Made by a program: the position numbers and the translations under genes. A stretch of 64,000 nucleotides of DNA from Patescibacteria group bacterium (GTDB lineage: Bacteria > Patescibacteriota > Patescibacteriia > Patescibacteriales > UBA12465), in assembly GCA_041650715.1 (NCBI GenBank), contig JBAZKQ010000001.1, positions 587,146-651,145 of the forward strand, written 5' to 3'. Below the pieces are notes generated by a model. That model was not told the origin of the DNA, did not search any database, and saw nothing but the letters and a program-made list of their open reading frames with translations. Below are positions 18,588 to 52,800 of the stretch, in pieces; within the stretch, counting starts at the first letter, position 1; each line of letters begins with the position of its first letter.

Positions 18588-18596
18588 TTTTATACG

Positions 18597-18683
18597 CGGA
18601 GAGGGTGGGATTCGAACCCACGGTCGGCTTGCACCGACGACAGTTTTCAAGACTGTTCCATTCGACCGCTCTGGCACCTCTCC
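18597..18683 (-). tRNA. tRNA-Ser(UGA): tRNA-Ser (anticodon UGA), long variable arm
   Basis: Minus-strand cloverleaf: GGAGAGG acceptor, anticodon loop cuUGAaa, long variable arm, GGTTCGAATCC T-arm. No encoded CCA. Confidence 0.8.
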
Positions 18684-25641: not shown

Positions 25642-25727
25642 CGCGGAGAGACAGGGATTCGAACCCTGGGTACCTTGCGGTACACAGACTTTCCAGGTCT
25701 GCCGATTAAACCACTCTCGCACCTCTC
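25642..25727 (-). tRNA. tRNA-Ser(GGA): tRNA-Ser (anticodon GGA), long variable arm
   Basis: Minus-strand cloverleaf with GGAGAGG acceptor, anticodon loop cuGGAaa, long variable arm and GGTTCGAATCC T-arm. Confidence 0.8.
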
Positions 25728-26377
25728 CATTCTTTATATATATTAGTAATTCGTGGATTTGATGACCCAAAAATACTCAAATATTTAATTATCGATTCTT
25801 CCTTATACAAATTTATCTGGTTTTCTTTTTTGTTAATATGCGGTTCTATGGCGAACTTACGAAAAATATCCGAAACCGAATGTATAATATTTTTTGAAAA
25901 ACTAACAAAACAAAAACCGATATTTTTATAAGTAACCCCGCCAACTATATGGTGATGAACATACAAACAACCATCCGTATCGACAAGACCTCTCACAAAT
26001 AGTTTTTCATACTTGTCATTTCTCCGTATCCAATCTGGAATATCAAAATTTTTTTTAATTTTATTACCTCTCACTGCGCCCTTCTTGACCAAAAAATCCA
26101 CCAATGACATGCTTGTTGATATCAACTGCAAAGCCCTTTCACCTCTTTTTCTAAACACTATATCTAAGCCAAAGAGCTTATTTATCATTTTTTCTATATA
26201 CAAAGCATATTCCGCATCCTTATCGGCATTTAAAGTAATAATCATCTGCCAAGGATTACCGATTCCTCCATCGCCAAACTCCGCTCCCATTAATTCAGCT
26301 AAACGGGCCGATTCTCGAGGGAGCTTAATAAGCTTCCGATGACTCTTTTTCGGATATTTTAGAAGAACCTTATCCAT
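25706..26377 (-). CDS. LAGLIDADG homing endonuclease (two-motif, free-standing)
   Basis: Two LAGLIDADG-type motifs: LAELMGAEFGDGGI and FVRGLVDTDGCLYV. The 3' end abuts or overlaps the tRNA-Ser(GGA) 5' end. Confidence 0.65.
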   Translation of the reverse strand: MDKVLLKYPKKSHRKLIKLPRESARLAELMGAEFGDGGIGNPWQMIITLNADKDAEYALYIEKMINKLFGLDIVFRKRGERALQLISTSMSLVDFLVKKGAVRGNKIKKNFDIPDWIRRNDKYEKLFVRGLVDTDGCLYVHHHIVGGVTYKNIGFCFVSFSKNIIHSVSDIFRKFAIEPHINKKENQINLYKEESIIKYLSIFGSSNPRITNIYKEWRGARVV

Positions 26378-34462: not shown

Positions 34463-37400
34463 TTATTTAAGCTTATTTTTTAGTTCCAGTTTTTTGATTC
34501 TAGCTTCGAGAGTATCTATTTCCTTCTGCTGGGCTTTTACCGCTTCAATCAGAGGTGCAACTAAGTTACCATACTGAACGCCCTTTGCGCCTTCAGTCCC
34601 ACTAACTAATTCGGGATAAACTTTCTCTACTTCCTGAGCGACTAAACCGAGACTTGCAGCGCCGTCCGCCTTCCAATTAAAGGAAACCCCGCGCAGTTTC
34701 ATGATTTTATCCAAGGAATTATCCAAGGTTTTAATATTTTTCTTTAAATTACGATCGGAAGAATAAGTATAAGAAGTGGCCAGTACATTGCCGACGACCT
34801 CTAATTTACTGACCGGCGTCGTTGTGCCGATACCGACGTTAGCGCCCTTGACGTTTAATTGTCGATTGCCATAAAAATAAGTTCCGGTTGTTAAATTAAG
34901 CGCGGATATAACCTCGTCGGCGATCATGCTATACACGCCCATTTCCCCCTGATTATAGCCGTCCTGCATAATAATATCATTAGAGGTAAAGCCATAGGGG
35001 GCCGAAACGGCAGTACTTGCATATACGCTGCCAATGACCTGCAAGGCAGCCCCTGGATTCGTCGTCCCAATCCCAACTTTACCCAGCGATGTAATTGTCA
35101 CTTTGTCCGTTCCGCCGGTCTGTATTTTTAAAGTATCATTCACTCCATCCGCATTAATAATTGAGTAGCCGCCGGTATTGGAAAGCAAACTTAAAGTAGC
35201 GCTACCCGAGGTAGTCGGAGCAATATATAAAACGGCACCGCCCGCTTTATTAAGCGTTACGTCATTGCTAAGCAAAGTAGTACCGGCGACATTCAAGTTA
35301 TAGCTTCCCGTGGCAGTTGTGCCGATACCGACGTTGGAGCCAAAATAAGCTTTACCATCTAAACCGATAGCCGCGCCGATAGCACCGTTATTTGTAAAGA
35401 CGATTTGATGAGTATTAAGAAAGGGCGCACCGCCATTGGTGCTATAAGCATAGCCCATACCATATTGCGCACCAAAATTATCATTAGCTGTGCTCATCGG
35501 ATATGCTTCGGATATTGACCAAATGCCCTGAACCTCAGCCGCATTATAAGTTCCATAGCTGCCTAATCTTGATGTTTTGACGGCACCCAAAACGTCAAGC
35601 GCCACGGCTGGGTTTGTCGTACCTATCCCGACTTTACCATTCACGATCAAATTAGAAATATTACCATCAATAAAAGATCCGATTTCTACGGCCGGCCAAC
35701 CAGCGTCAACATTAATTTTTAAACTTGTATCTCCTCCTCCAGGACTCAAGGCGCCATAATTATCACCGGAAACATAGGTAGTCAAATTTAAAGAATGAAA
35801 GCTCGCAGAGCTGCCGCCAGTCACTGCCGCGGAAAAATTTGCCATCCCAGCAACATTTAATTTATAGGTGCCAGGGAGTGTTGTGCCAATACCTACGCCA
35901 GTGCCATTATCAAAAATAGAACTAATGGTTAAACCCGTAGAGCTTGCCCATTTTGTAACATAATTAGTTGTGCCAGTACCGGTAACTGTGCCGCTGCCAC
36001 CAGCCGGAAGAATAAGACAGCCTTCAGCATTTCCGGAAGCGTCAATACCCGCAGGATAATAGCCTGCCCCGCAATTAGTACCGTTAGCAGCCAAGGCGGT
36101 GGCTGTGCCTGACCGCAAACTGGCCGCCGTACCGGTTAACCCGGTACCGGCTCCGCTAAAAGATGAACCGGTTATCGTACTGGAGACATTTAAAGTTCCT
36201 AAAATATAACTATTGCCGTTTACATATAATCTATAGGCGCCCGGAGTTGTAGTGCCGATACCGACATTACCGGCGCCGGCGTCACCGTTATAAATAACGC
36301 CGTTTTTAGTCCCTTCCCAGAGATTACTGGCCGCAATTAAGGTCTTAACGTACCCTGTATTAGTCAGGGCGTAATCATCGGTGCCTAAATATGTACTTGT
36401 ATAATTATGACCTGTCGCGCTTGAACCGACCGGAGCATAGGCACCAACATTAGCGATTGAAAAACTATCATTCGGAGCACCGGTGCCACCGATACCGACA
36501 TTGCCGGCAGTCGGTTGCAAGAGGACATAACTCGTAGTTCTGGTGGCATTACTTGTTCCCTGCAAAGTTAGGTTTCCGCTCGCCACATCAGAACCATTTA
36601 TAGTCGCATTATCAGAAGTAAAAGTTAAAGAAGTCGGTCCGCCCCAATTAAAGGCGGCGCCGGTAGTAAGCGTAGTGAGTGATGAAGCGGTCAAAGATGT
36701 TTGCCCAGTTAAAGTCAGGGCGGTCGCCGTAAATAAAGCGCGCTGAACTCCGCCTAAAGTTAAGCCAATTTGACTTGCGGCCGGATGATACATGCCGGTT
36801 GTCAGGTCTCCGGTCCAAGCGAAGGAAGGTGTAGAAATAAGGTCAGCCGCTTGGCCTAAAAATTGAGTATCAGAACTAACTGAACTGGTAAATTTAGCAG
36901 GGCCGGAAACATTTAGGCGATATGCACCGGGAACGGATGTCCCAACACCGACATTGCCGGTAGAATCAACATAAACACCCTCATTACCACCGTCTCCCGA
37001 TAACCAATGAGTACTTAATTGAATATTTTGGGTTGCAATATGAGAACCTAAATCATCACCTCCGGTAGATGTTCCGCAGTCAACTCCTTTTGCCGAGACG
37101 ATACCGGTCGCATCAACATATAAACAGCGATTACCGGTACCGGCGAGCGTTGAATTGGTTATTTGGCCGTTAAAATAACTTGTACCGACGACCGCTAATT
37201 TCGCTAAGGGCGAAGTGGTGCCAATGCCGACATTGCCCGCGCCGGCGTCGCCATTATAAATAATACCATTATTGATGCCACTCCAGAGAAGCGAAGTGCA
37301 AGTTTCCGCATTGCCGGAAGCATCAATCCCGAGGGGGTAATTACCCGTCGTACAATTGTTCCCATTACCGGCAAGGGTGCTGGCCGAACCGGCCGTCGAT

Positions 37401-38337: not shown

Positions 38338-39888
38338 TCATTTTTGATAATAGAAATCAAATAAAACTTCATTTAAAAAGGGGGAATAAAAACTGTCCGT
38401 TTGCGCCGGAAAGTCGACGCGCAAAAAATAATTATTTTCTACCGTCGCCTTAAAAGTTTGGTTCAAATTTTGTCCGCTCGGCAGCTCTTGCCAAAAATTA
38501 TTGTCCGTCGAGAATGAAAGCTTCCCTTCCGAACAAGGATTATCGGGAGAACCTAACTTGCTGGCGGCCAATTTTTTAATAGTTATCCCCGGTTCGGCAA
38601 TAATGGCATTATAAATTAACTCACCCGGCATTCTACTCTCAAAACCACGATCAGTAAAAACCCGGTTCGTCTCCATATTGTCCTGCCTAATCGTGGCCAG
38701 CAAGACGAACTTATCGGCCGCTGCCGCGACAAGGCGGAAAGAGGCCGATTCCCCGGAATTACTAAAGATATTTTGATAATCAGCTTCACCACTAATTTTA
38801 CCATCACTATTTTGCCAAAGTTTAATGAGCCGCGGACGACCCAAGCTCGAGCTATAGATATACCAATTAACAACCCGTCCATTAGTGGCTTTGATAATTT
38901 CCGGCCTAAAACCGGTCGCCATTACCCGAAAATCAAAAAAAGTACTGATATCCGTTACCGTAGCAGCCTGAAAACGATAGGCCTCACCGCGATAAGCGCC
39001 ATAAATTACTAAATAATCAGTATCGGAACCGCCGAAGCCAAACTGCCCCAAATAAGGAGAACTAATTTTTTCGGTCTGGTCGCCGAAAATAAGCGGACTA
39101 AATTTATTGCCATCAAAAATGTAGACCCTCCCTTGATAAGCGTCGCCCTCTTTTAGAGTTAGTCCAAGCAACCAGCGGGTGTCAAGCGCGCCAATCGTTA
39201 AAGCGACCACGTCGGCGGCCTTAATTTCACCGGGCAAAGCGAGAGGCTTCCCCTGATAACTTAAATGCTTCCCCGTTTGTTCTAAACAATTTCCGCCGAG
39301 ACAGCGCCGGTCAGAAATAACGAGAGGCTCTAAAAAATCACTTATTTTATTTTGAGCTAATGAATTACTTTTAGCTAACTCCGCTTCATTTTTTAAACTT
39401 TGACCGGAAGATTCTTCTTCCCAGGTATAGCGCGGCGGAAAATAAACGGCCGCCGCCAAATCATCGCGATAAAGCGTGCTCGCCGCTGAATTTAGTAAAT
39501 AATCACTCGCGAAACTATCAAAAAACGAACTGAATATCTGCGGCTTATCATCCACAATAATCTCGGAACTTAAGCACGGAACGCCTCCGTCGAGATTATC
39601 CTGCTCAGATAAGCGGGTTTGGGACTGCTCTCGGCTTAAGATCCGTTCAGTCATCGAGCCGGAATTCGAACCTTGATTAGCGGCCGCAAAATAAGTCCGG
39701 CAGCAAAATATAGTCAAATAATAAACAGCAATTAAAAAAAGACTAAAAATAATTAAATAGCCTAAATTTAAAAAATATTTATTTTTAACAGTTTTTCGCA
39801 TAGCCCGCTTTATAGCGCTTAGACTCACTTTATGAAAATGCCCCGCTATAGAGCGGGGCATTTTATAAAAACCGAGATTATTGAACAA
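38338..39888 (-). CDS. membrane-anchored hypothetical protein
   Basis: 516 aa. N-terminal TM, no recognisable motifs. Confidence 0.35.
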   Translation of the reverse strand: MFNNLGFYKMPRSIAGHFHKVSLSAIKRAMRKTVKNKYFLNLGYLIIFSLFLIAVYYLTIFCCRTYFAAANQGSNSGSMTERILSREQSQTRLSEQDNLDGGVPCLSSEIIVDDKPQIFSSFFDSFASDYLLNSAASTLYRDDLAAAVYFPPRYTWEEESSGQSLKNEAELAKSNSLAQNKISDFLEPLVISDRRCLGGNCLEQTGKHLSYQGKPLALPGEIKAADVVALTIGALDTRWLLGLTLKEGDAYQGRVYIFDGNKFSPLIFGDQTEKISSPYLGQFGFGGSDTDYLVIYGAYRGEAYRFQAATVTDISTFFDFRVMATGFRPEIIKATNGRVVNWYIYSSSLGRPRLIKLWQNSDGKISGEADYQNIFSNSGESASFRLVAAAADKFVLLATIRQDNMETNRVFTDRGFESRMPGELIYNAIIAEPGITIKKLAASKLGSPDNPCSEGKLSFSTDNNFWQELPSGQNLNQTFKATVENNYFLRVDFPAQTDSFYSPFLNEVLFDFYYQK

Positions 39889-40549
39889 TCATTGTACCGA
39901 CTTCACCACGAGCGGCATGTCCAGGAATATCACAGCGGAAAGTATAGGTTCCCTTTTTCGGGGCGTTCCAGGACTTAACGCGTGTTTCTCCACCGGCAAC
40001 GCCAAGCGCAGTCGCAGTCAAAGCGGTGTCATCAGGCAAGAAAACGTGAGTAAAGCTATCAGTTGAAGTTAAAACAAAGTTAACCAATTGACCTTCCTTA
40101 ACCGTAAAGGTGTTCGGCACAAAACCAGCACCGCTCACTGATAATTTAACGGTATTAGCACCGGTCGGAACTTGGCTCGCAGAAATTGGAGCTGATTCTT
40201 TAGGGGCATCGGCTGAGGACGGCATAACATTCAATTTAACCGGCGTGCCTTCCGGGGTCACAACTTTATTCTCCTTTGTAACTAAGCTGGTTCCAGTCGC
40301 AACTGAAACGGACGAGGCGATAATTTCCGGAGTAGCCGTCGCCGTTGAAACGACATCCTTCGAAGGAGCGATTTCTTCAGGCGAAGTTGTCGCGTTGCTC
40401 GCTTCCTGAGTAGGAGTAGTTATCCCCCCAGTCGGCAATTGGATTTTCTTGCTTTGGCTAATCGCGACAATAATGATAATCACCACCACCGCAATAACTC
40501 CAAGCAAAATAAACACTTTTTTCTTGTTTGTTTGCATAGATTTAAACAA
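39878..40549 (-). CDS. membrane-anchored cupredoxin (plastocyanin/azurin-like blue-copper domain)
   Basis: N-terminal TM, Thr/Ser/Pro linker, C-terminal C-x2-PGH-x4-GxM copper-site motif (FRCDIPGHAARGEVGTM). Confidence 0.55.
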   Translation of the reverse strand: MFKSMQTNKKKVFILLGVIAVVVIIIIVAISQSKKIQLPTGGITTPTQEASNATTSPEEIAPSKDVVSTATATPEIIASSVSVATGTSLVTKENKVVTPEGTPVKLNVMPSSADAPKESAPISASQVPTGANTVKLSVSGAGFVPNTFTVKEGQLVNFVLTSTDSFTHVFLPDDTALTATALGVAGGETRVKSWNAPKKGTYTFRCDIPGHAARGEVGTMIVQ

Positions 40550-40566
40550 TTTATATTTTAATTAAT

Positions 40567-41151
40567 TTAACGGCTTGACGTATAATCGTACTTTACTTTT
40601 AAATTCAATCTCTGCTGTAAAAGATTCGCCTGCTTAAGTTTGCCCTGGGCGATTAACTTATAGGTTTCACCAAATTGCACAAAATTATCGGCATTGACCT
40701 CCGGTTTCCAGCCCTGGCCGACGATACTCCGCCAAGCCTGATAATCACCCGCCATAATAGCGGCATCAATCTCACTGATTTTAGTCGTCAATACTTGAAA
40801 ATCTTGCTTTAAATTTAATTGCTTTTTGATTAGATTCGCCTCTTCGACTTTACCTTGCTGCAAAAGACGATAAACTTCTGTAAATTGAGAAAAATTGTCG
40901 CTCGTAATCTTTGCCTTGAGACTTTTATCGGTAACAAGACTGCTCCAGGTAGCGTAATCATTATTCATAATCGCCTCCTCAATCGCCACATTCTTTTCTT
41001 GAATGATGGCATCGCGAGCCGCATTAGCCTCGACCATCGCTTTAACAAAGAGCGGGGTGAGGGCAGCCAAACAAAGAAGAATAAATCCGATGGCTGAAAA
41101 AATTAATAATTTTTTGTGGTCGTGGAGATAGTTTTTAAATCTCTGCGTCAT
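40567..41151 (-). CDS. membrane-anchored protein with two ~55-aa internal repeats
   Basis: DYATWSSLVTD...ANLIKKQLNLKQ and DYQAWRSIVGQ...ANLLQQRLNLKVK. Confidence 0.35.
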   Translation of the reverse strand: MTQRFKNYLHDHKKLLIFSAIGFILLCLAALTPLFVKAMVEANAARDAIIQEKNVAIEEAIMNNDYATWSSLVTDKSLKAKITSDNFSQFTEVYRLLQQGKVEEANLIKKQLNLKQDFQVLTTKISEIDAAIMAGDYQAWRSIVGQGWKPEVNADNFVQFGETYKLIAQGKLKQANLLQQRLNLKVKYDYTSSR

Positions 41152-41269
41152 AGATTTTTTTTAAATTAATTTTTGCGAAGTTATATAAAATTTAATATAT
41201 ACTAATTATAGCATTTCGCCTTTTGATTGGCAACAAGTTTAAGCAAGCCCGCTTGGTTCACCACCGTTT

Positions 41270-42556
41270 TTAGCGAAGCTGGTTCTTCTGATAATTATAG
41301 TCAAAAGACTGGTTAAAACTCGTAATTATCTTCCGGTCGTCAGTTACCAGAGCCGACTCATCGTTATTGTAGGCGCCGGCCCGGCTCCAATTATTCGTTC
41401 CGAAAAAAATCTTTTGATTATCCACAATCAGCAGATGGTAATGCAGGAAGGGATCGAGACTCTCTACCGAGCTGGAAGCTAAAGCACTTGCCTCGTCGCC
41501 ACGCGGCGCGTCACTTATAATCTCTAAATTATTTAATTGATATTTCTGCTTGGCGGCTATTAGATTCTGAAAAACCGAGCTTTTATTATATAAATTACGA
41601 TTATCGGTAATTATTGTCACTTTTACCCCGGCGCGGGCGCGGGTGATTATTTCGTTCGCCAAACCAGAATCGGTAAAATCCCAAATCATAATTCTGATTT
41701 CCTGTTTGGCGCTATGCAATAATGTATAAATTCGATTGCTTAGACTATTACCCGGTACGCCTGGACCAAACCAAACTTCATAATTAGAGCCGCCGGCCGT
41801 CATGCTTAAATCCCAGGGATTATATTTTTTATCGCTGAGTTTTTTCGGTCCCGATTCCCCCTTAGCTAAGCGCTCAAACTCTCGCCCAAAACTCTTGATA
41901 AATTCGGCGTTACTCGTAATCAAGATAAAGCTGGGGTCATACTTTTCTTGAAGTTCAGTCCAATTATAGGAACCAAAAATTAATTTCTGGTTAGCTTCCC
42001 CACGATCGATGAGCGCAAATTTATGATGCATCAAAATGGTCTTGCCACTCTTCTCTTCCCCCAAGTCTAAGCGCTTAATGTTCGCCGGCATATCGGGCAG
42101 AGCTTCGTCATGCACTTCCTTTTTTCGAAAATCAAGAACCAGGGTAACCTTAACGCCACGCTTGGCAGCCGCATAAATCGCGTCTCTGATGCGCGGCGAC
42201 TTTAAAGAGTAGACCGCAATCTCCAACGATTTTTGCGCCTGATTTATTTCCGCCTCAATCCGATCGGAAAAAACTGTTGTGCCAAGTTCGTCATTAAACA
42301 GAAGATCAGCAGAAACCGGTTCATTAGATTGGATAATACGCGCCGGTTTATTATTGGTCGCTAAATAATTAGTCACCGGCTCGGACCAGCGCCGGGTCAG
42401 CTGGGCGACGAAAAATAAAAGTCCTAAAACCAGAAAGACGAGCAGTGTAATCCGAACTGATTTTTTCTTGATAATTTTTCTAAGTGTTTTTTTAAATTTC
42501 ATAGTGTTCGCTAAAAGTATCTTTCCCGCTATCTTCCGTCGCGAAGAAAACGACAA
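41270..42556 (-). CDS. phospholipase-D-family protein (two HKD-like motifs, N-terminal TM anchor)
   Basis: First motif HHKFALIDx12GSYN (HxKx4D...GSxN). Second motif HYHLLIVDNQKIFFGTNN, with K->H substitution. N-terminal hydrophobic anchor. Confidence 0.6.
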   Translation of the reverse strand: MSFSSRRKIAGKILLANTMKFKKTLRKIIKKKSVRITLLVFLVLGLLFFVAQLTRRWSEPVTNYLATNNKPARIIQSNEPVSADLLFNDELGTTVFSDRIEAEINQAQKSLEIAVYSLKSPRIRDAIYAAAKRGVKVTLVLDFRKKEVHDEALPDMPANIKRLDLGEEKSGKTILMHHKFALIDRGEANQKLIFGSYNWTELQEKYDPSFILITSNAEFIKSFGREFERLAKGESGPKKLSDKKYNPWDLSMTAGGSNYEVWFGPGVPGNSLSNRIYTLLHSAKQEIRIMIWDFTDSGLANEIITRARAGVKVTIITDNRNLYNKSSVFQNLIAAKQKYQLNNLEIISDAPRGDEASALASSSVESLDPFLHYHLLIVDNQKIFFGTNNWSRAGAYNNDESALVTDDRKIITSFNQSFDYNYQKNQLR

Positions 42557-44195
42557 TACTGGTCGGCAAATTAACTCGCAGCAAGTTCAAAAGCGCGTCG
42601 CAGTCGGCGTCATGCAAATCCGCCCAATAATTATCCACCGCGACGAAATAGGGGCGATTAGCCAAACAGTAAGCGACTTGCAATAATAGATTATTCTTCG
42701 GACTCTTGGTAAATTTATGCGCCTTAAGGCGCCAATCTTCTTTTTCAAAAAATATTTCTTTCAATTCCGGGTGGCCGTTAACTAAAGCCGAGATGCTGGC
42801 AAAATCTTCTTGGCTAATACGACTTTTCTCCCGGCCAGCGACTACCTCGAGCAAGGTGCGTTCGCTTTTAAATTTAGGGTCAATAAAATAAAAGCTGGCA
42901 TAGTGCTGAAAAAAATCATTATAAAAATATCGTTTGTCACGCGCTTTAATAATCCAGGCCCGTCGTCCGTATTCCCCGCGTCCGCAGAAAAGAGTGGCGA
43001 GCGTGCTTTTACCGCTCCGCCGGGCGCCGCTTATTAAATACTGCTTCCCGACCTTAAAAATAAATCGTAAATTTTTATAATAAGGCGATTTCTTAAATAA
43101 TTTTACTTTCGCGGACTTAAAAATCAATTCTTTAAAGCGCGGTTTCAGGTCACGGCCGATTTCCGGTGCCGTATTTTTCGGAACCGACAAAGAAAGGCCG
43201 AAGGTAAACGGTACGGAATAGAGACCGATACGCAAACTTTCATAAAGCAGGCGGGAAAAATAAACCGTGAAAATAACTAAAGCAAATTTATCGTTCGAAT
43301 CCGTCGTGGCGATAAAGTTAGAAATCTGCTGGTCATAAACGCTAAAAATCCAACCGAAAAAGATAATCAAAATAAAGACAACGCTGGCGCCGAAGCGCAG
43401 CCAAATATCGCGGCGCACCCGGAAATACGAATCAAGATCGACGAGATTATTAAAATCATTTAGCGTGGCCCGCTCACGATGGAAATATTTAGTAAATTGC
43501 CAATCCGATAAAGTAAAGTCAACCAATTTAATTATCTTGGAATAAAAAGTCGTTTCCCGCGAAACATAATAACGGGAAATGAAATAAGCGATGCCGGCAA
43601 TAATTATATTGATAATGAGGCCCGCGACGTAAAAAATTATCAGATGAGTACTGAAAACAAAACATAAAAACAAAAGAATAAGCGAATATAATAGCCAGCG
43701 AAGCGATCCCGCCAGACTATTGGTGAATCCCATGGCGAGCAGCGGGAGATGATACGATATTTTAGCTAATAATAGCCCTTTACTGTCAAGGTTCGCCGCC
43801 GCCGCTTCAGAATTAAGAGAAAGCTTGAACCACTTTAAACGCAGATTATTAATTAATTTTATAACCAGCGTCCGTTCCAATTTGATCGCAAAATAAGAAG
43901 CAAATAAATAAATAAGAGCGCCAACGGCAATAAAAACGAAAACCCGGCTATTGCTCATGAGGCCATAAATTTGCCCGCCGTTCTTTAAATAACGATGGCT
44001 CAGCAAAATCAAAATAACTTCCAGTATTCCCTGCACCAGCAAAAAAACCAAGGCGCGGGTAATTAGTTTTTTATGGCGGCCAAAGAATCTAAAAAGAAAA
44101 GCAAAATCATCGCGCGTCGGCCAGAGCGGCGAATTCTCCATGCGCTCGCCACGGCGGCGGCGCATTAAACTAATTTTTTTTGAGTCGATTGACAT
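42492..44195 (-). CDS. ABC-exporter-like protein (6-TM domain + degenerate NBD)
   Basis: N-terminal ~300 aa with ~6 TM helices. C-terminal Walker A GARRSGKST. Degenerate signature (NNLLLQVAYCLA instead of LSGGQ) and Walker B (VAVDN, no catalytic Glu). Overlaps the RT stop by 26 nt and the PLD start by 65 nt. Confidence 0.55.
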   Translation of the reverse strand: MSIDSKKISLMRRRRGERMENSPLWPTRDDFAFLFRFFGRHKKLITRALVFLLVQGILEVILILLSHRYLKNGGQIYGLMSNSRVFVFIAVGALIYLFASYFAIKLERTLVIKLINNLRLKWFKLSLNSEAAAANLDSKGLLLAKISYHLPLLAMGFTNSLAGSLRWLLYSLILLFLCFVFSTHLIIFYVAGLIINIIIAGIAYFISRYYVSRETTFYSKIIKLVDFTLSDWQFTKYFHRERATLNDFNNLVDLDSYFRVRRDIWLRFGASVVFILIIFFGWIFSVYDQQISNFIATTDSNDKFALVIFTVYFSRLLYESLRIGLYSVPFTFGLSLSVPKNTAPEIGRDLKPRFKELIFKSAKVKLFKKSPYYKNLRFIFKVGKQYLISGARRSGKSTLATLFCGRGEYGRRAWIIKARDKRYFYNDFFQHYASFYFIDPKFKSERTLLEVVAGREKSRISQEDFASISALVNGHPELKEIFFEKEDWRLKAHKFTKSPKNNLLLQVAYCLANRPYFVAVDNYWADLHDADCDALLNLLRVNLPTSIVVFFATEDSGKDTFSEHYEI

Positions 44196-45390
44196 GCTGG
44201 CTTGATAAGAAATGTTTATAAATCGAGACTAAGGGGATGCCTTTTAACTTTTCGTTAAGAAGGCGCCGGTTTTTAGGGGTATAGGTACCAAAAAAATAAC
44301 GGGTTAAAATATGGAAGAAAGCTTCGGAAACCGCTCGGACTTCTTCGGACTTAGTCACTAACTTTTTTTGCTCGGCAATTTGCTTAAACTGTTCGTATAA
44401 ATTATTGCGCTCTCTTTTCAAGGACTTAGTGATAAAATCCTTTTTCCTTTGCTCGTCATGCACGCGGTAATAATCAAATTGTGCACTCCAGCGCTTCAGC
44501 ATCTGCTTTAGGAAGCCCGGCTCCAGCCCGATAGCACCCGCGTTAAAATTATAACCTAAAAAATTAAAAACATCGTTAGCGCGGCCCAGTCTGGTTTTCT
44601 TTTCATTAATTTTTAAACCCAGTTCTCCCGCCGCCATTACCAAATGCTCATATAAAGGCTGCAGCCGTTCCGCTTTTTGATCAAAAATAATTAAATCATC
44701 GCCGACGCGGCGATAAAAGTCGGCTCGTGGGCCCGAGTATTTATCAAAATCATCCAAATATAAATTATTAAATAGAGCGACGAGCGGGACGCCCTGAATG
44801 ATACCCACTTCCCGGTTAACGACTTTGCCGTCCTTAATAATTTTATTGCCGATAAAGAGCTTTAAAAGTTTATAGACGTCACCCTCAAAATTCAGTTTCT
44901 CGATTTTTTTGAGCAGCAATACGGGGCTGATATAATTGGAGTAATCCGTTAAATCGGCGACCAGCGCAAAATCGCGATTATGATATTTTTTATAATGACG
45001 CACAACGCTGCGCGCGGCGAAATAACTTTGGTGCGAAGAACGATAGGAAAATAACCACTCGGAAAAATAAGCGTCGAAAAAGGGTTCAACTATTTGATAA
45101 ATCGCCTGCGCTTTGACTCTTTCCTTGAGATTATAAATATAGATCTCCCGCATTTTCTGGGGATTGTTTTTTTTCGGAATCGTAAAAAGAACGGCCGGCG
45201 AAAGCTCTTTAAAGGCAATCATTTCGCGGCGCACTTCCTTAATTAATTTAGCGGGATCAACCTCTAAATCACCTTGTTTCAAACCGTCATAACCCGCATA
45301 GCGCCCGGCGCGGCCGTCTGCATCCATTTGCTCGGCCAATTTCAAATAAGCCTTTTCGAGATTATCACGGGAAATTATTTCTTTAAACAT
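44170..45390 (-). CDS. reverse transcriptase (group-II-intron-like / retron-like RT domain, no maturase or intron RNA)
   Basis: Motif 0 ISRDNLEKAYLKL. Motifs 1-2 IPKKNNPQKMREIYIYNLKERVKAQAIYQIVEPFF. Motif 2a SYRSSHQSYFAA. Motif 3 FALVADLTDYSNYI. Motif 4 GIIQGVPLVALFNNLYL. Motif 5 FYRRVGDDLIIF (VGDD in place of YADD). Motif 6 LGLKINEKKTRLG. Motif 7 FNFLGY. ATG at 45390. The ORF track extends to a TTG at 45402. Confidence 0.8.
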   Translation of the reverse strand: MFKEIISRDNLEKAYLKLAEQMDADGRAGRYAGYDGLKQGDLEVDPAKLIKEVRREMIAFKELSPAVLFTIPKKNNPQKMREIYIYNLKERVKAQAIYQIVEPFFDAYFSEWLFSYRSSHQSYFAARSVVRHYKKYHNRDFALVADLTDYSNYISPVLLLKKIEKLNFEGDVYKLLKLFIGNKIIKDGKVVNREVGIIQGVPLVALFNNLYLDDFDKYSGPRADFYRRVGDDLIIFDQKAERLQPLYEHLVMAAGELGLKINEKKTRLGRANDVFNFLGYNFNAGAIGLEPGFLKQMLKRWSAQFDYYRVHDEQRKKDFITKSLKRERNNLYEQFKQIAEQKKLVTKSEEVRAVSEAFFHILTRYFFGTYTPKNRRLLNEKLKGIPLVSIYKHFLSSQHVNRLKKN

Positions 45391-45414
45391 AAAAAAAATC
45401 AAATACCCTGGTCG

Positions 45415-45684
45415 CTACTTCTAAGCTGACCGAACCTTAACGGACGGCCATCATTTAAATGACAATGAGTCTTTCCCTTGATAAGGGAGAGATTTTCTTT
45501 TCGACTATTACATATCTAATATGTGATAGTCTTTTCGCACGGCCGTAAGGCTTTGCGATTTTTCGCGGACGTAAGTCTGCGTTTTTTCGGATTTAATTAA
45601 TTCATAAAATGCCACCGGCACTAGCGGTTTTTTTATGGCATCAACCGATTAATTCTTAATGCCTCTTTCGAGTTTTAGAAGTAG
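45415..45684. ncRNA. structured non-coding unit 1 (~270 nt) flanked by 10-bp terminal inverted repeat ctacttctaa/ttagaagtag; candidate RT-associated ncRNA
   Basis: No ORF. At least four hairpins, including GNRA-type loops (ggcc-gtaa-ggct). Contains the 12-bp palindrome tcatttaaatga. Homologous to unit 2 with compensatory changes. Confidence 0.55.
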
Positions 45685-45743
45685 TCGCCAGGATATTTAA
45701 TTTTAAAATTACTAAAAACTGTTAACTATAAATATCCTGATAA

Positions 45744-45988
45744 CTACTCCTAAGCTGGTCAAACCTTTACGGACGACCATCATTTAAATGACAATGAGTC
45801 CTCTTCTTGAGAAGGAGAGGATTTTCTTTCGCTATTGCATAGTTTACTATGCAGTAGTCTTATACGTGAAGCCGCAAGGCAACATGTATAATTCGGATTT
45901 AATTAATTCATGAGCGTCACCGGCATTAGCGGTTTTTTGCGGCGCCGACCGATTAATTCTTAATGCCTCTTACGAGTTTTAGAAGTAG
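45744..45988. ncRNA. structured non-coding unit 2 (~245 nt), tandem copy of unit 1 (~80% identity), flanked by ctactcctaa/ttagaagtag
   Basis: Same hairpins as unit 1 with covarying stems (acatat/atatgt -> gcatag/ctatgc; tctttccctt/aagggagaga -> tcctcttctt/aaggagagga). One hairpin deleted relative to unit 1. Confidence 0.55.
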
Positions 45989-46051
45989 TTGTCAGGATAT
46001 TTAATTTTAAAAATACAGAGACTTTACGATCGCTCTAATTTATTATGTCAT

Positions 46052-49000
46052 CTACCGATTAACGATAACTCCCGTTTGCGCTTGGTCATGCGCTCGCGTC
46101 GGCCAATTCTGCCAATCGTAGCGTTTGCCGATTAAACGATAAGAAATTTCCACCGCTTCGTTTGAGCGGAAAATTAATTTATTATTTTCAATAACATAAT
46201 AGACATTAGCGAATTTACCCGACGGGGTAATAAATACTTGGACATTATCATTATTATAATCAACAACTTTATGCCAGAGCCAGAGGTCGCTGCCCTCGTC
46301 TTCAAGCGCAAAATTTATAATATATTCATATTCCCGCGTCTTGGCATTAAAACGCTGAATATCTGCCTTCCCGACATATTCCTCCTTAACGCCACCGGCG
46401 ATTGAAGGCGCGAAAGTAGAATAATTAACATCATTAATATTATACAAAGGATCGATTGTCGTAGCGGTAATCTTAGTGACGGTCAAATTATTCAAGTTAG
46501 TAATATTTTTGGCACCAAAATTTACGTCACCCAGCATTGTGCCGCCGGTAAGCGGTAAATAATTACCGGTGGGCATTGAGCTGGTCGCAGCCGCAATTAA
46601 TGTTTTCACAATTCCATAATTAGCAAGAGCATAGTCATCAGTACTCAAATATGTGCTCGCATAATTATGCCCGGTATTTAATGAGCCGGCCGGAGCGGTG
46701 CCCGCGTTGCCGATAGAGAAAATATCGTTAGGAGCGGTCGTACCGATACCAACTTTACCCGTGCCTCCCGGCATTAAAGCGAGGTTAACACCCGAAGCGG
46801 TAGTAATAGAGTTGGGACCGGTTCCGGAGAAGGCTAAATCAGCACCGGCACCAGAGAGAGTAATGCCGGTTGTCCCGGCTAAGGCTAAATTGGCGGCGCC
46901 ATAAATATCACCACCGGCAATATTCAAACGATAGGCACCCGGCAGAGATGTCCCAATACCGACGTTCCCGGTAGCGTTAACAAAAACACCTTCATTACCG
47001 CCGTCTCCCGATAACCAATAATTACCAAGTAAAATATTTTGTGTGGCCGTATGGTCGCCTAAATTATCGCCACCAGTTGCCGTACCGCAATCTGTCGTTT
47101 TAGCGGAAACGTTTCCGGTCGCATCGACATATAAACAGCGATTGCCCACCCCGGATAAAGCGGTGGTAATTTGACCATTTAAATAACTGGTCCCGACGAC
47201 AGCCAATTTATAAGCCGGTGTCGTTGTACCGATGCCGACGTTGCCCAAACTTTCACTAACATAAAATAATGAAGACCCGCTTCGATTATTAATATGGAAA
47301 CCAACGTTTGTGGAATCATAACCGACGCTCATTCGTTCCAGACCGGATGAATTCAAAAATTTCAGCATTTTGTCATTGGACGTCGCGGAGTTAGATTGAA
47401 TAGCTATTTGTCCACCGGTAACCGTTAATTTGCTGCCGGGTGTTGTCGTCCCAATCCCGACATTCCCTGCTCCGGCCGCACCGTTCCAAATATTACTGTT
47501 TAAAGTTCCACCCCAAAAATTTGTTCCTCCGGCGGGCAGCGAGCTCGTTGCGGCCGCAATCAAGGTTTGAACGATGCCATAGTTAGCAAGCGCATATACA
47601 TCAGAACTTAAATAAGTGCTCGTATAATTATGGCCAGTTGCGCTGGACCCAGCCGGAGCCGAACCGGAGTTGCCGATAGAGAAAATATCGTTAGGAGCGG
47701 TGGTACCAATACCAACGTTGCCGGAAGTTCCTAATATAGTCATTCTTATATTTGCATAACCATCCGTAGAAAAATATATTGGCTTGGCAGCAACATCATT
47801 TGAAAAATATAAATCAGTAGCATTTAATCCGTATCCGAACCAACCTAATCTTATTCCAGAATTATTAAAAAATTCAGCATAAGGCGTTGCAGCTTTTAGT
47901 CCCAGCGTATGACCAACCCCTTGAATCATTGTAACAACACTGTTAGCGGAGCTGTAAACATGTAATGGATAAGCGGGGCTAGTGGTGCCAATTCCAACAC
48001 TCCCGGCAGCATTTACAAAAACACCTTCATTGCCGCCATCGCCTGATAACCAATAATTACTTAATTGAATATTTTGCGTTGCAATATGAGAACCTAAATC
48101 ATCGCCCCCGGTCGCCGTACCGCAATCCGTTGTTTTCGCGGACATATTGCCACTCGCATCAACATATAAACAGCGGTTGCCTACTCCGGATAAAGCGGTG
48201 GTAATTTGACCATTTAAATAACTGGTCCCGACGACAGCCAATTTATAAGCCGGTGTCGTTGTGCCGATACCGACGTTACCGAAAGAATTAATAAACTGGC
48301 GGGTAACGCCATTGCTTACAAAACTAAGTGTTTTATTTGTACCATCAAATAATACTTGTGCTTCTGTACCGCCTAAAGTACTTGACAAAGTGTTAACCTC
48401 AAGCGTTGTTCCATAATAAACCGAACCGCTTTCTGTTCTAAATTGGGCCGCTCTAATATTTCCGGCCACCTGTAACTTATCTATCGGAGCAGTTGTCCCG
48501 ATTCCCACATTTCCCGCTCCGGCATCGCCATTCCAAATATTTACATTCTTAGTACCTCCCCAAAAATTTGTTCCTCCGGCGGGCAGCGAGCTCGTTGCGG
48601 CTGCGATTAAAGTATTAACGATTCCATAATTTGCCAGAGCGTAATTATCCGTACTTAAATATGTATTTGTAAAATTATGTCCGGTATTTGCCGACCCGGC
48701 CGGAGCCGAACCGGAGTTGCCAATGGAAAATCTATCGTTAGGAACGGTCGTCCCGATCCCAACATTGCCGGAAGCAATAATGCGCATAGCCTCTGTTCCC
48801 TGATTTACAAAAAATGCATGCTGGCCATTAACACCCGCTTGATATTCCATTACATTAAGCGACATGCCGATACCATATCGATTGCCGGTAGAACCATTGG
48901 TAAACATGTCCCACTTTAAGTTATTTACACTTCCCGCGACACTCGAACCATAAGTACCGCCGAAGGAAACGTTTAATGGCGTCGGAGTTGATACCGATAC

Positions 49001-49843
49001 CGTAGTACCAAATAAGGCGCTACCATTAACGTTCAATAATCTTGTCGGATTCGTTATTCCAATCCCGACATTATCCGTGATTGTACTCGGATATAAATAG
49101 GGTGCTGTTCGTGTCCAACCGCCCGCTCCACCGCTAACTGAAGCCCAATCAGTTCGACAGTCATCCTGAAAACATAAACGATTAGCTTTTAAATCACCCT
49201 CGATTCCGAGTGAAACCACATCGCCGGTGCCATAAGCAAAAGGAGTCGCACCGTTATAATTCCCAAACCAAAGCGAGGTCGTCCCGACTCCGGTTAAGGC
49301 AATCGATTTATTATTAGTTAATTGTAAATCTCCTGTCGGTGCTAAATTACCAAGACTATCAAGCGTTAAAGAAGGAGTGACAACCTGCTTAATAAACCCA
49401 CTGACATTTGATAAATTTGAAATTTTGAGCGGCGCGGAAACGCAAGCACCGGATATTAAATCATAACCGGCGACACAAGAGGTGCAGGAATTGCTCGTAC
49501 AAGTATCGCAAGTGGCACAATTCGATCCGGCCGTACAATTTGAAACGCAAGCGCCGCTACAATTCGTATATCCGCTACTACAAGTTAAAGCACAGCCGCA
49601 AATATTACAGTCAAAAGCATAAGTACCATTGGCCGGATTAGAGGGACATGCGGCCGTCGGCTCGATTGTACAGGCAAGCGTATTACTGCCGCACCAAGAC
49701 TTGCCACCATCCGCCCAGGAGCATAATTCCCCGTTTTTCATCGTATCGGTAATACAACCTTTAGGCGAAGTGGTCGCAAAAACTCCGGTAGCTATGAACA
49801 GCCCGGAGAATACGACAATGGCGAGCAAAAATTTCTTCGTCAT
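46052..49843 (-). CDS. giant secreted tail-fibre-like repeat protein (1263 aa) with Cys-rich N-terminal region
   Basis: Signal peptide. Cys-rich region (~60-140). Three copies of the ~90-aa module NVGIGTTAPNDIFSIGNSGSAPAGS.NTGHNYT.TYLSTDDYALANYGIV.TLIAAATSSLPAGGTNFWGGT.N.NIWNG.AGAGNVGIGTT. Also carries the NGQITTALSGVGNRCLYVDA.GN.SAKTTDCGTATGGD module. Confidence 0.7.
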   Translation of the reverse strand: MTKKFLLAIVVFSGLFIATGVFATTSPKGCITDTMKNGELCSWADGGKSWCGSNTLACTIEPTAACPSNPANGTYAFDCNICGCALTCSSGYTNCSGACVSNCTAGSNCATCDTCTSNSCTSCVAGYDLISGACVSAPLKISNLSNVSGFIKQVVTPSLTLDSLGNLAPTGDLQLTNNKSIALTGVGTTSLWFGNYNGATPFAYGTGDVVSLGIEGDLKANRLCFQDDCRTDWASVSGGAGGWTRTAPYLYPSTITDNVGIGITNPTRLLNVNGSALFGTTVSVSTPTPLNVSFGGTYGSSVAGSVNNLKWDMFTNGSTGNRYGIGMSLNVMEYQAGVNGQHAFFVNQGTEAMRIIASGNVGIGTTVPNDRFSIGNSGSAPAGSANTGHNFTNTYLSTDNYALANYGIVNTLIAAATSSLPAGGTNFWGGTKNVNIWNGDAGAGNVGIGTTAPIDKLQVAGNIRAAQFRTESGSVYYGTTLEVNTLSSTLGGTEAQVLFDGTNKTLSFVSNGVTRQFINSFGNVGIGTTTPAYKLAVVGTSYLNGQITTALSGVGNRCLYVDASGNMSAKTTDCGTATGGDDLGSHIATQNIQLSNYWLSGDGGNEGVFVNAAGSVGIGTTSPAYPLHVYSSANSVVTMIQGVGHTLGLKAATPYAEFFNNSGIRLGWFGYGLNATDLYFSNDVAAKPIYFSTDGYANIRMTILGTSGNVGIGTTAPNDIFSIGNSGSAPAGSSATGHNYTSTYLSSDVYALANYGIVQTLIAAATSSLPAGGTNFWGGTLNSNIWNGAAGAGNVGIGTTTPGSKLTVTGGQIAIQSNSATSNDKMLKFLNSSGLERMSVGYDSTNVGFHINNRSGSSLFYVSESLGNVGIGTTTPAYKLAVVGTSYLNGQITTALSGVGNRCLYVDATGNVSAKTTDCGTATGGDNLGDHTATQNILLGNYWLSGDGGNEGVFVNATGNVGIGTSLPGAYRLNIAGGDIYGAANLALAGTTGITLSGAGADLAFSGTGPNSITTASGVNLALMPGGTGKVGIGTTAPNDIFSIGNAGTAPAGSLNTGHNYASTYLSTDDYALANYGIVKTLIAAATSSMPTGNYLPLTGGTMLGDVNFGAKNITNLNNLTVTKITATTIDPLYNINDVNYSTFAPSIAGGVKEEYVGKADIQRFNAKTREYEYIINFALEDEGSDLWLWHKVVDYNNDNVQVFITPSGKFANVYYVIENNKLIFRSNEAVEISYRLIGKRYDWQNWPTRAHDQAQTGVIVNR

Positions 49844-49861: not shown

Positions 49862-52800
49862 TTATTTACAGCAAGCGAATTTTCGCGCAACGTTACAGCG
49901 GTTAAGCGAACCGAAACCATCAGCATACCCGGTCGGACGATTCCAGACCGCGCCGAAATCAGTACTAACATTACTTGTCCACCCGATACAGTCATTGGCA
50001 TTAGCCGTATAGGCCGGCGGACCATTATTAATCCAGAGTGTAGAGGTGAGCGGAATACTCGCCCCGCTGCCCTGATTGACCGTATATAAAATTTCTTCAG
50101 AAGTACAAACATGCGTATCGGCAACAGTCGCCGCACATAAAGCATTGGCCGCGCTATAGCTGCCGACGTTGCCGGCATAGGTTAAAGCGGTTGAAGTAGA
50201 ATAGGTCGCTAAACCACCGCCGGTCGAACCCGAGATCAATGACTTCACTACGCCGTAATTAACTAAAGCGTAATCGTCTGTGCTTAAATAAGTATTCGTA
50301 AAGTTATGACCGGTGTTCGTTGAACCGGCTGGAGCGGAGCCCGAGTTGCCGATTGAGAATATATCATTCGGTACGGCGGTACCAATGCCGATATTGCCGG
50401 TGCTTAGTATGGTCATTCGATCAGAAAGTGAGTTAAACAAGGACCCGGAACTGCCGGCATCCGCTGTTTGAAAAGTGATGTTGCCACCGATAGCCGAGCC
50501 GGTTCCCGGACCGCCCGCAATGACTAAATTCGCGCCCGCATTATTTGTGCCGAGACCGCCCGTAGCGAATAAAGAAATCGTGCCCGGGTTCGAAGCATAA
50601 ACTCCCTTCCCTAAATAGATATCATTTTGATTCGCACCTAAGATTATCTGATTACTCTTTAAAGCCTTTGCGTTATACCCGACCACAATTGAATTGGCCG
50701 AATCGGCAATAACGCTTGTAAGCGAAGCATCGGCCGTCGTATCGGAATAGGTGGTCGTTGAATTATCATTAATAGTTGCCACTAAATAATATGGCCCCTT
50801 ACCATAAACGCCTGACTTAGTACGATAAATTTTTCGAGCTGTACAAAGATACGGCCCCGTGTAGGTCGGAATTGCACTCAAATTAACCGCTTGATTACCG
50901 GACGTCGTATTTATGCTTCCTAAGTGCCCGCTATTTGTTTCCCCAATAGACAAAACAAAGCTCACTCGATAATAATATGGGCCGACGCCCAGATTACTCC
51001 CGGCGGCCAAAGCGAGAGAACCGGTGCCGGGGCTAAGATAATCTGCACCGCTCCCCAAGGCAATATTATAAGAACCGTTTACCGTACTGACAAGAGAATT
51101 AGTACCCAGCGCCAAAGTATCGCTATTGGCATTTCCATAATAATTTGAGTTAAAGCCCAAAATAACATTACTATTTCCCGTAGAATTCCAGCGCCCGGCG
51201 TAATAGCCCATCATGACCGCACCGGCGCCGGTCCAAGATTCGCCCGCGCCCAGACCGACTAAAGTATTATTGCTGCCGGTCGTAATTTGGTTACCAGTTT
51301 GACGACCAATTAAAGTATTCATCGTTCCGGTCGTTATGGCTGAACCGGCGCCGCGGCCAATAGCCACGTTATAACTACCAGTCGTTAGATTCTGACCCGC
51401 CTGAGCTCCGATAAAGGTATTTTCGGTAGCGGTTGTCAAAGTTGTGTTACCGGCCTGATAACCGACAAAAATATTATTAGTATTTCCAAAAGAATGAATA
51501 TATCTTTGCCCGCCCATCTTAATTATACCTTCAGTAGAGGAAGATAAAGGTAGGCCAAGATTACCTTGAACATATAATTTATCAGCCGGGGTGCTTGTGC
51601 CAATACCAACATTCCCTGCGCCCGCAGTCCCGTTCCAAATATTTCCGTTAAAAGTGCCTCCCCAGAAATTCGTTCCCCCGGCCGGTAGTGAACTGGTCGC
51701 GGCGGCGATTAAGGTTTGAACAATTCCGTAGTTAGTAAGAGCATAATCATCTGTGCTCAAATATGTGTTTGTATAGTTATGGCCAGTATTACCCGATCCA
51801 GCCGGAGCGGAGCCGGAATTACCGATTGAGAATGTATCGTTAGGAACATTTGTGCCGATACCGATATTGCCCAATGAATCGATAAACTCGCGTGTGGCAC
51901 CGTTTGTTACGAAACTTAGTGTCTTGCCAGGGCCATCAAACAATATTTGTGCTTCTGTACCGCCTAAAGTACTTGACAAAGTGTTAACCTCAAGCGTCGT
52001 TCCATAATAAAACGAACCGCCATCCGTTCTAAATTGGGTTGCCCGTATATTTCCTGCGACTTGTAGTTTGTCACCTGGCGCTGTCGTCCCAATCCCGATG
52101 TTGCCTCCGGCCGCTATTCTCATTCTTTCAACATTTGTAGACTGAGTAAATGTTATTGGCTGGTCACCTGAAGTTGCAAAACCAAGAGGATAAGTAGTTA
52201 TAGTTTGAAATAAAGATCTGGCAGTATCCTTCCCATTAATTCTAAACCCATTTAAATAAGTATAGCCGTCTACATATAAGGCCCACGGTTGAGCGCCCGT
52301 CCAGGCGGTATTTTGTTTAACATAAAGAGCGGAGCCTCCGCCATTATTAGTTCCGCCATCTCCAGCCGTAGCCGAATTTATCGTCAAGGCTGAGCCCGGT
52401 GTCGTCGTCCCAATGCCAACATTCCCCGCCCCAGCGTCGCCGTTCCAAATATTACCGTTTAAAGTCCCACCCCAGAAATTCGTTCCCCCGGCCGGTAGTG
52501 AACTGGTCGCGGCGGCGATTAAAGAATTTACGTAACCAACATTAGTTAAGGCATAATCATCGGTTGCTAAATATGTACTCGTAAAGTTATGGCCAGTGTT
52601 CGAGGAACCAGCCGGAGCGGTACCGGAATTACCAATAGAAAAGATATCGTTTGGCACAGTTGTGCCAATCCCGACGTTGCCATTAGCAAGGATCATCATA
52701 TTATATCTGACAGCTGAGTTATACCAACTACTAAAAGTAAAATTTGAAGCGGAAGAATAAAAAGTGTTTGCGGAAAAAGCGGATGCACCAACGATAAACT

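Follow-up and report, generated by a model that had tools for sequence, protein, structure and literature searches.

A four-part cassette in Patescibacteria in which a reverse transcriptase resembling those of group II introns, with a VGDD box, lies beside a structured RNA and two membrane-protein genes

What role can a reverse transcriptase (RT) similar to those of group II introns have when it is encoded outside any intron, directly behind a structured RNA, and with VGDD in place of the usual YADD at its catalytic center? This question is raised by a gene on the minus strand of a 64,000-nucleotide stretch of DNA from a Patescibacteria group bacterium (contig JBAZKQ010000001.1), referred to here as the window. 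The RT, the upstream non-coding RNA (ncRNA), an ATP-binding cassette (ABC) exporter-like membrane protein, and a phospholipase D (PLD)/Nuc-like protein form one conserved, portable four-part module (Table 1). Confidence in this anatomy is far higher than confidence in any mechanism or in a role in defence.

The cassette is present in 61 loci among 185,579 species genomes (one per GTDB species), a number that is a lower bound because the scan was seeded with a single peptide pattern. Downstream of the RT gene, and sharing its strand, come the ABC-like gene in 60 of the 61 loci and then the PLD gene in 58, as mapped by tblastn and clustering of open reading frames (ORFs); where either partner is missing, the gap falls at a contig end. 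The same order of RT, ABC-like, and PLD genes is kept by the distant xGDD RTs P0205, P0216, and P0201.

A preliminary description of the window had placed the RT gene and read its RRVGDDLIIF and QGVPLVALF motifs correctly, as judged by the ORF call and by independent gene calling on the source contig (ENA ERZ27247363, 758 kb), which gives the same RT protein. The ORF can also be opened at a TTG (44170..45402, minus strand, 410 aa); however, the ATG at 45390 is likely the true start. The gene is tightly bounded, as that description had it, by the RNA units upstream and by the next coding sequence downstream, which begins either at ATG 44165, 4 nt past the RT stop, or at ATG 44195, overlapping the RT gene by 26 nt.

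Table 1. Features of the cassette and its immediate surroundings, in window coordinates
Feature	Coordinates	Strand	Remarks
Reverse transcriptase gene	44170..45390	-	406 aa from ATG (MFKEII...); group-II-intron-like, free-standing
Motif A / RT3, ADLTDYSNYI	44929..44958	-	aa 149-158; catalytic D150; S155 at GsI-IIC F143 position
Motif B / RT4, QGVPLVALF	44770..44796	-	aa 203-211
Motif C / RT5 box, RRVGDDLIIF	44683..44712	-	aa 231-240; V-G where Y/F-A is usual
ncRNA unit 2	45395..45708	-	314 nt; ends ~5 nt before RT start codon; covariance model matches, covariation
ncRNA unit 1	45722..46012	-	291 nt; tandem paralogue of unit 2
Pseudoknot 5' half, unit 2, GCAUUA after P2	45657..45662	-	unit 1 equivalent 45961-45966
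Pseudoknot 3' half, unit 2, UAGUGC in loop of hairpin 45614-45628	45618..45623	-	unit 1 equivalent 45923-45928
Partial third copy (21/24 nt) of ncRNA segment UUAAUCGGU.GAUG.CAUAA.AAA	46039..46062	-	overlaps stop codon of upstream giant protein
ABC-exporter-like membrane protein	42492..44195	-	567 aa, or 557 aa from ATG 44165; ~6 transmembrane helices
PLD/Nuc-like protein	41270..42556	-	428 aa, or 410 aa from 42502; signal-anchor, two PLDc_2 domains
Single-pass membrane protein	40567..41151	-	194 aa; internal duplication; with cassette only in nearest subclade
Membrane-anchored cupredoxin-like protein	39878..40549	-	223 aa; Pfam Cupredoxin_1; with cassette only in nearest subclade

The RT family and its nucleotide pocket

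Among proteins of solved structure, profile comparison places the RT nearest to the group II enzymes, with E-values of 8e-34 for the GsI-IIC RT, 2.5e-31 for the E. rectale IIC RT, and 2e-28 for RT-Cas1. More distant matches are DRT9 (6.5e-17), DRT2 (1.4e-13), G2L4 (1e-9), and retron RTs (about 1e-6), while Pfam RVT_1 is matched above its cut-off (6.9e-16). The structural comparison proposed in the preliminary description was run with an AlphaFold model (pLDDT 90.6), for which Foldseek returns the GsI-IIC RT (PDB 6AR1) as the best match with a TM-score of 0.81 over ~410 residues, a length that takes in essentially all of both proteins. DRT9 ranks second among the structural matches, and the bRT of diversity-generating retroelements (DGRs) is weaker than GsI-IIC. 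Because the match to GsI-IIC is full length, the C-terminal ~120 aa are assigned to a thumb/X region plus a small C-terminal domain of the group II type. These C-terminal ~120-130 aa had been regarded as non-RT sequence devoid of maturase or endonuclease signatures; the absence of such signatures stands, but the region is not foreign, as it matches GsI-IIC structurally.

Sensitive Pfam searches, which might have uncovered a hidden maturase or endonuclease, detect neither a GIIM/maturase nor an endonuclease domain in the window RT (E ≤ 0.1) or among 51 members of the family (E ≤ 1), and the NCBIfam model group_II_RT_mat, whose cut-off is 300 bits, gives 115. In Rfam searches of the window at the gathering threshold and of 45300-46150 at E ≤ 10, no domain of a group II intron is detected; these searches yield only a transfer RNA (tRNA) elsewhere in the window and chance-level matches. 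The earlier view of a domesticated, free-standing RT is thereby supported, with a group-II-like profile and fold but no intron RNA, GIIM, or endonuclease. The enzyme fits the definition of G2L proteins, namely RTs closest to group II RTs but without intron RNA (PMC8632793), and the family may sit unnamed inside an expanded G2L clade of earlier RT surveys.

The best PADLOC RT-group model is UG26 (120 bits, E 1.9e-35), which is matched by all 51 members. However, the PADLOC models carry no curated cut-off, and the UG26 score equals that of the generic RT model PDLC01136 and is similar to that of the group II model; therefore, membership in UG26 is not assigned. UG26 RTs are ~400 aa long without an added domain and have a Vsr-like endonuclease in 9 of 35 cases (PMC9226505) rather than ABC and PLD genes, and no ncRNA is reported for them.

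The RTs of this type form a discrete family. A search of 5.8 billion proteins returns 102 close clusters, all of ~400-410 aa and almost all from metagenome-assembled genomes (MAGs) of Patescibacteria, beyond which the E-value jumps from 1e-65 to 1e-14. The nearest matches to the RT profile outside the family, P0208, P0210, and P0217, have an unusual double-RT architecture: they are ~830-860 aa long, and in each a complete group-II-like RT domain is followed by a second one, both having a YADD or YCDD box.

In an alignment of 51 family sequences, G234, D235, D236, and the motif A aspartate D150 are invariant, and the residue before GDD is V, I, or C; both catalytic aspartates of the box are thus retained, as had been read from the window alone. 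When 1.84 billion representatives were searched exhaustively with the profile and 248 RTs were then aligned with hmmalign, 141 family-like sequences were identified, in which the box is VGDD (124), IGDD (8), CGDD (3), MGDD (3), or LGDD (1). With [VICML]GDD in 139 of 141, the possibility that orthologs carry YADD and that VGDD is a sequencing or strain-specific variant does not hold; across these sequences VGDD is a family trait rather than an error. In motif B, G204, P206, and N213 are invariant, while the glutamine of QG is relaxed to Q, T, A, or S. The resulting family motif, [QTAS]G[VT]PL, agrees with the earlier statement that motif 4 is not the SQ type of DGRs.

The family shares with group II intron RTs the motif B framework G-x-P-L...N, an N-terminal extension, fingers, palm, thumb, and a small C-terminal domain. 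It departs from them in the VGDD box, in the unconserved glutamine of QG, and in a serine or threonine at the position of GsI-IIC F143. This phenylalanine is described as the aromatic residue that all RTs conserve, which stacks against the sugar of the dNTP and would collide with a 2'-OH (PMC8363836); like F143, the x residue of YxDD packs on that sugar (PMC8363836; bioRxiv 2025.01.14.632616). In the window RT, S155 lies opposite F143 in an HMM profile alignment to 6AR1 that contains no indel between the catalytic aspartate and the end of motif A, and its identification as the steric-gate position rests on this gap-free alignment rather than on superposition.

Serine or threonine occupies the position in 121 of the 141 family sequences and phenylalanine in 12. 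Among 236 aligned RTs, whose counts are not phylogenetically independent, a non-aromatic residue is found at this site in 133 xGDD enzymes, in none of 65 xADD enzymes, and in two others. The distant relatives P0212, P0220, and P0222 combine YGDD with Y-T or Y-V and look like intermediates. The alignments thus depict an intact catalytic triad of three aspartates within a remodelled sugar-contacting pocket. The Ser/Thr change at the steric gate and the RT-RNA-two-gene module both go beyond the preliminary description.

The invariant glycine before the two aspartates, as in the GDD of RNA-dependent RNA polymerases (RdRps), the serine or threonine in place of the steric gate, and the relaxed QG glutamine together motivate a rather improbable proposal: the pocket might no longer exclude ribonucleotides, making the enzyme an RT-derived cellular RNA-templated RNA polymerase, or a polymerase of mixed or modified nucleotides, that acts on its own pseudoknotted RNA. 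The extension of this proposal, in which a pseudo-ABC membrane protein, paired with a PLD nuclease outside the cell, would sense or receive the product, is likewise rather improbable. Pfam RdRP_1 is matched over motifs B-D by 6 of the 51 members, two of them above the cut-off (28.3 and 24.4 versus 23.9 bits). On RVT_1, however, every member has a far higher score, and the protein folds like a group II RT.

The upstream RNA

The two RNA units in front of the RT gene are 86% identical, with compensatory changes in their helices. Each is closed by a helix of 25-30 bp, and their fold z-scores relative to shuffles are -7.2 (unit 1) and -9.6 (unit 2). Within the closing helix, unit 2 has a multi-stem core and a pseudoknot, and a run of eight U residues follows the unit. 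A covariance model (CM) built from the two units places an RNA against the RT start in at least 23 of the 61 related loci, down to ~40% RT identity. Over 20 units aligned to this model, 93.8% of cells are paired, compared with 74% in shuffles and ~40% in slid controls, and compensatory changes are seen in 72 of 80 pairs.

The pseudoknot provides a separate test, as it lies outside the original model. Six nucleotides after helix P2 (GCAUUA) pair with a conserved hairpin loop (UAAUGC); all 120 of 120 cells are paired, and six of six pairs covary. A detector without a spacing constraint is unspecific (58 of 59 real versus ~43 of 59 shuffled regions), and a spacing-constrained detector was therefore used. 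With a spacing of 35-43 nt, the pseudoknot geometry is found in 53 of 59 upstream regions, as opposed to 10-21 in shuffles, and in at least 12 sequence versions. A C:G pair within the conserved hairpin loop, present in model R1, was dropped in favor of the pseudoknot.

Wherever the upstream sequence is long enough, a non-coding gap of roughly 130 nt or more lies 5' of the RT. Measured from the true RT start, the gap is ~200-320 nt in almost all of these loci and contains a long closing helix; a few ORF-to-ORF gaps are shorter where the ORF finder over-extended the RT start. The RNA measures 205-315 nt across the family, and its variable region holds 0-3 extra hairpins. Only four columns are invariant in 25 RNA sequences, and 16 are nearly invariant. 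In L005, L008-L011, L016, and L017, a GC hairpin followed by a U-run, resembling a terminator, occurs in the 30-60 nt before the RT ATG, which suggests that the RNA is a discrete transcript and that the RT is expressed by read-through. A promoter and terminator scan of 41000-46300 in the window gave counts no higher than those in shuffles and is uninformative.

Tandem duplication of the RNA is observed in the window, in its nearest relative (L001), and in L041. In the last, a Parcubacteria MAG with 39% RT identity, the copies (L041:4638-4910) are spaced by 188-189 nt and are 73-83% identical; this duplication is independent of that in the window and L001. The partial third copy just 5' of unit 1, which is not significant by blastn-short in the 64 kb context, could be a remnant third unit or a target-like site.

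Several features sought in the RNA were absent. No conserved stop-free frame exists on either strand of 25 RNA units, and the RNA alignment contains no conserved U-tract. A blastn-short comparison of each RNA with its own locus reveals no segment copies elsewhere in 22 loci, and in a repeat search of the whole window, the RNA region repeats only onto itself.

Partner genes, distribution, and neighborhood

The ABC-like protein belongs to a family as narrow as that of the RT. Its profile matches ABC proteins of the exporter fold (pgp-1, PCAT1, TM287/288, MsbA, and ABCB4). In its nucleotide-binding domain, Walker A is kept, Walker B invariantly reads D-N where D-E is usual, and neither the signature motif nor the H-loop remains; distant cassettes lose Walker A too. 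Judged from these motifs, the domain in the window protein probably still binds ATP without hydrolyzing it.

In the PLD protein, the first HKD motif is canonical, whereas the second is an invariant H-x-H (aa 372-374), with histidine in place of lysine, across 22 homologues. The best solved relatives are NucT, Zucchini/MitoPLD, and Nuc. Almost all homologues have an N-terminal hydrophobic anchor with a strongly positive N-flank, on which basis the catalytic domains are predicted to face outward; this topology rests on the positive-inside rule.

A variation on the RT-ABC pairing is provided by the YGDD relative P0212. Its locus, L064, comes from a GC-rich organism outside the Candidate Phyla Radiation (CPR), and the RT adjoins a canonical ABC exporter in which the Walker B D-E and the H-loop are intact. 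The two genes are convergent with an overlap of ~90 nt, and the arrangement may represent an ancestral or a rearranged state.

The records that carry the cassette are nearly all Falkowbacteria, Magasanikbacteria, Paceibacteria, Parcubacteria, or Patescibacteria or are titled "uncultured Gammaproteobacteria"; titles of the form "uncultured Gammaproteobacteria bacterium" (L002, L005, L010, L012-L014, and others) are probably placeholders or mislabelled. The distribution is patchy, and flanking genes vary between lineages. Five MAGs hold two to three copies, which share only 36-60% identity with the query RT. A phage origin was rejected, as just one matching contig is present among the 2.9 million viral contigs of IMG/VR.

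Two further proteins, the 194-aa membrane protein and the cupredoxin-like protein, accompany the cassette in 15 and 7 loci, respectively (tblastn), and the former is encoded upstream of the cassette in L002 and L015. Giant secreted proteins of 1263 and 2196 aa are encoded next to the cassette in the window (46052-49843 and 49862-56452, continuing to ~64000), and others lie at 34800-37300. They contain 12-27 copies of diverged repeat modules and have Cys-rich ends. Related giant proteins adjoin the cassette in 9-11 of the nearest loci, an adjacency that may reflect synteny or a functional link; no repeat relation of the DGR type exists between the giant proteins and the RNA. Elsewhere in the window, two tRNA-Ser genes (18596-18683, tga; 25643-25728, gga) are each followed by a similar terminator-like hairpin and form an 86-nt repeat of 73% identity; Rfam at the gathering threshold gave only the first.

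Relation to known systems and possible function

Relative to mobile group II introns, the cassette lacks intron RNA, GIIM, and endonuclease, and the next coding sequence lies no more than 4 nt from the RT stop. G2L4 likewise has a diagnostic change in the YxDD box, to YIDD, which tunes its function (bioRxiv 2025.01.14.632616); an RT3a knot insertion is its other hallmark. The changes in the present family are Y to V, A to G, and F to S/T, and the match to G2L4 (9D4S, E 1e-9) covers only residues 148-310; membership was rejected on the basis of the VGDD rather than YIDD box and the distant match. In the literature examined, no RNA or operon partner is described for G2L4, whereas the window RT is accompanied by an ncRNA dedicated to it and by two partner genes that are fixed.

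The closest working analogy is DRT10 (UG17, formerly G2L3), in which an ncRNA, an RT, and a co-evolving membrane protein are laid out in the same manner. The DRT10 RT makes a product from a defined region of its ncRNA, and in the proposal of the authors who described it, the membrane protein is under the control of the cDNA (bioRxiv 2025.10.16.682844). The effector is a SLATT protein in DRT10 but an ABC-like protein plus a PLD protein here. Identity with DRT10 was rejected, as the UG17 HMM gives only 78 bits (E 1e-22) and no SLATT is among the PADLOC matches listed for the partner proteins.

DRT2 and DRT9 (UG2 and UG28) also have a structured ncRNA directly upstream of an RT of ~400-500 aa without extra domains. 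The DRT2 ncRNA is described as pseudoknotted (PMC12039810). DRT2, however, requires no partner genes; it was dismissed as a candidate because NCBIfam Drt2 scores 39 bits against a cut-off of 390 and 25 units of the RNA have no conserved stop-free frame for a Neo-like gene. DRT9 was dismissed on a PADLOC Drt9 score of 54 bits and the absence of a conserved U-tract.

Retrons share the order of ncRNA, RT, and effector genes, as well as long inverted repeats that close the RNA and variable hairpins inside it, but the RNA of the cassette is larger and pseudoknotted. The 25-30-bp closing helix upstream of the RT is a retron-like feature, a resemblance only: the junction CUAAAAC lacks the conserved priming G, and retron RTs match at E 3e-6 or worse, and assignment to this class was rejected. 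DGRs were rejected as well, given that no template/variable repeat pair is found in the 64 kb window or in 22 loci, motif 4 is not of the SQ type, and no conserved neighbor has the size of Avd. The literature searched on UG26, on CPR RTs with ncRNAs, on RT combined with ABC and PLD genes, and on VGDD contained no description of the cassette, which looks undescribed.

The reading favored here, held tentatively and at somewhat less than an even chance, is that of an RNA-partnered polymerase controlling a membrane effector pair with a defence-type role. By analogy with group II RTs, which bind their intron, and with the RTs of DRT2, DRT9, and DRT10, which bind their ncRNAs, we infer that the RT would bind the RNA encoded upstream of it and would polymerize on part of the bound RNA. 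The ABC-like protein might then read the product, whatever its nature, or the state of the ribonucleoprotein (RNP) through its pseudo-ATPase domain in the cytoplasm. This protein and the PLD nuclease or phospholipase would act at the membrane as the output, most likely in an accessory function of CPR bacteria against phages or mobile elements.

Several observations weigh against this reading. The flanks, read by eye as gene clusters, consist mostly of housekeeping genes (sigma factor, tRNA synthetase, NusB, RNase III, pilins, PilT, and ComEC-like) rather than defence islands. The ABC-like protein matches no PADLOC system model, and the PLD protein matches only models of the DrmC/NucT type. The positive-inside rule places the PLD domains outside the cell, a location that fits poorly with an effector whose target is nucleic acid in the cytoplasm. 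The RNA might serve as a cis-regulatory leader and not as a template. Finally, the covariation counts were obtained from an alignment fitted to the model and are inflated also by relatedness, an inflation that is mitigated by the pseudoknot test and by the shuffle and slide controls.

The predicted outward placement of the PLD domains, with a signal-anchor in almost all homologues, speaks for an alternative in which the cassette is an envelope or scavenging operon. The ABC-like protein and PLD would then serve nucleic-acid or lipid acquisition, or envelope remodelling, in an episymbiotic CPR cell, with the RT and RNA as regulatory or accessory components. This alternative is considered unlikely. 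It draws on the kinship of the PLD protein with NucT, Nuc, and Zucchini/MitoPLD, on an ABC-like transmembrane domain closest to the lipid floppases and exporters MsbA, ABCB4, and PCAT1, and on the setting of the window subclade, in which the cassette lies amid secreted giant surface proteins and membrane-anchored proteins; pilin, PilT, and ComEC-like genes are also near the cassette in ~10 loci. A core function of this kind, however, is at odds with the patchy occurrence (at least 61 loci in 185,579 species genomes). The degenerate ATPase, in which the catalytic glutamate is replaced by asparagine and Walker A is gone in distant members, argues against active transport, and the RT and RNA are present in every case, with genes that abut or overlap.

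The position of the RNA bears on a rather improbable alternative, in which it is a cis-acting leader, i.e., a riboswitch-like element or an autoregulatory RT-binding site, and not a template or stable RNP partner. The RNA always occupies the place of a 5' untranslated region and ends at or over the RT start codon, the GC hairpins and U-runs of L005, L008-L011, L016, and L017 lie between it and the ATG, and riboswitches are known to occur in tandem. Yet a closing helix of 25-30 bp and inserted hairpins that vary set the RNA apart from ligand aptamers, and the few invariant nucleotides argue in the same direction. The pseudoknot sequence varies freely between clades, which fits a protein-binding scaffold that co-evolves with its partner. 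Furthermore, the characterized relatives of this type of RT all act as RNPs.

It is very improbable that the RT and RNA constitute a novel mobile retroelement with the ABC and PLD genes as cargo. Varying flanks, several copies in some genomes, tandem duplication of the RNA unit in two lineages, and the 21/24-nt partial copy just upstream speak for such an element, but the paralogous cassettes within a MAG, at 36-60% identity, are not recent copies, and the RNA excludes the RT ORF. No terminal repeats, target-site duplications, endonuclease, or integrase were found around the cassette, and only a single viral contig in 2.9 million matches it. That the locus is a degenerate or misread group II intron, DGR, or retron is extremely improbable: a group-II-like RT, giant variable-looking surface proteins next door, and a retron-like RNA closed by an inverted repeat upstream of the RT are set against the absence of intron RNA domains, of a template/variable repeat pair in the 64 kb window or the loci, of an SQ-type motif 4, and of a conserved G after the 5' strand of the closing helix, against the weak retron RT similarity (E about 1e-6), and against the intactness and conservation of the family in more than 100 clusters.

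The cassette is a candidate new RT-ncRNA system from the group-II-like branch. With each of the systems of this kind, namely retrons, DRT2, DRT9, DRT10, and DRT3, an unexpected way of synthesizing nucleic acids came to light. CPR/Patescibacteria, in which the cassette occurs, are reported to have few of the known defence systems. For a computational find, the system is well defined, with a covarying pseudoknotted RNA, fixed partners, and a testable signature, namely xGDD combined with loss of the steric gate. Should the membrane pair prove to be the effector, the known membrane effectors under nucleic-acid control would gain a pseudo-ABC protein and a PLD that faces outward. If the change in the pocket alters sugar selectivity, it would bear on the interconversion of RTs and RdRps and might offer a new enzyme for biotechnology; were the RNA polymerase proposal true, the family would represent a bacterial conversion of a group II intron RT into an RdRp.

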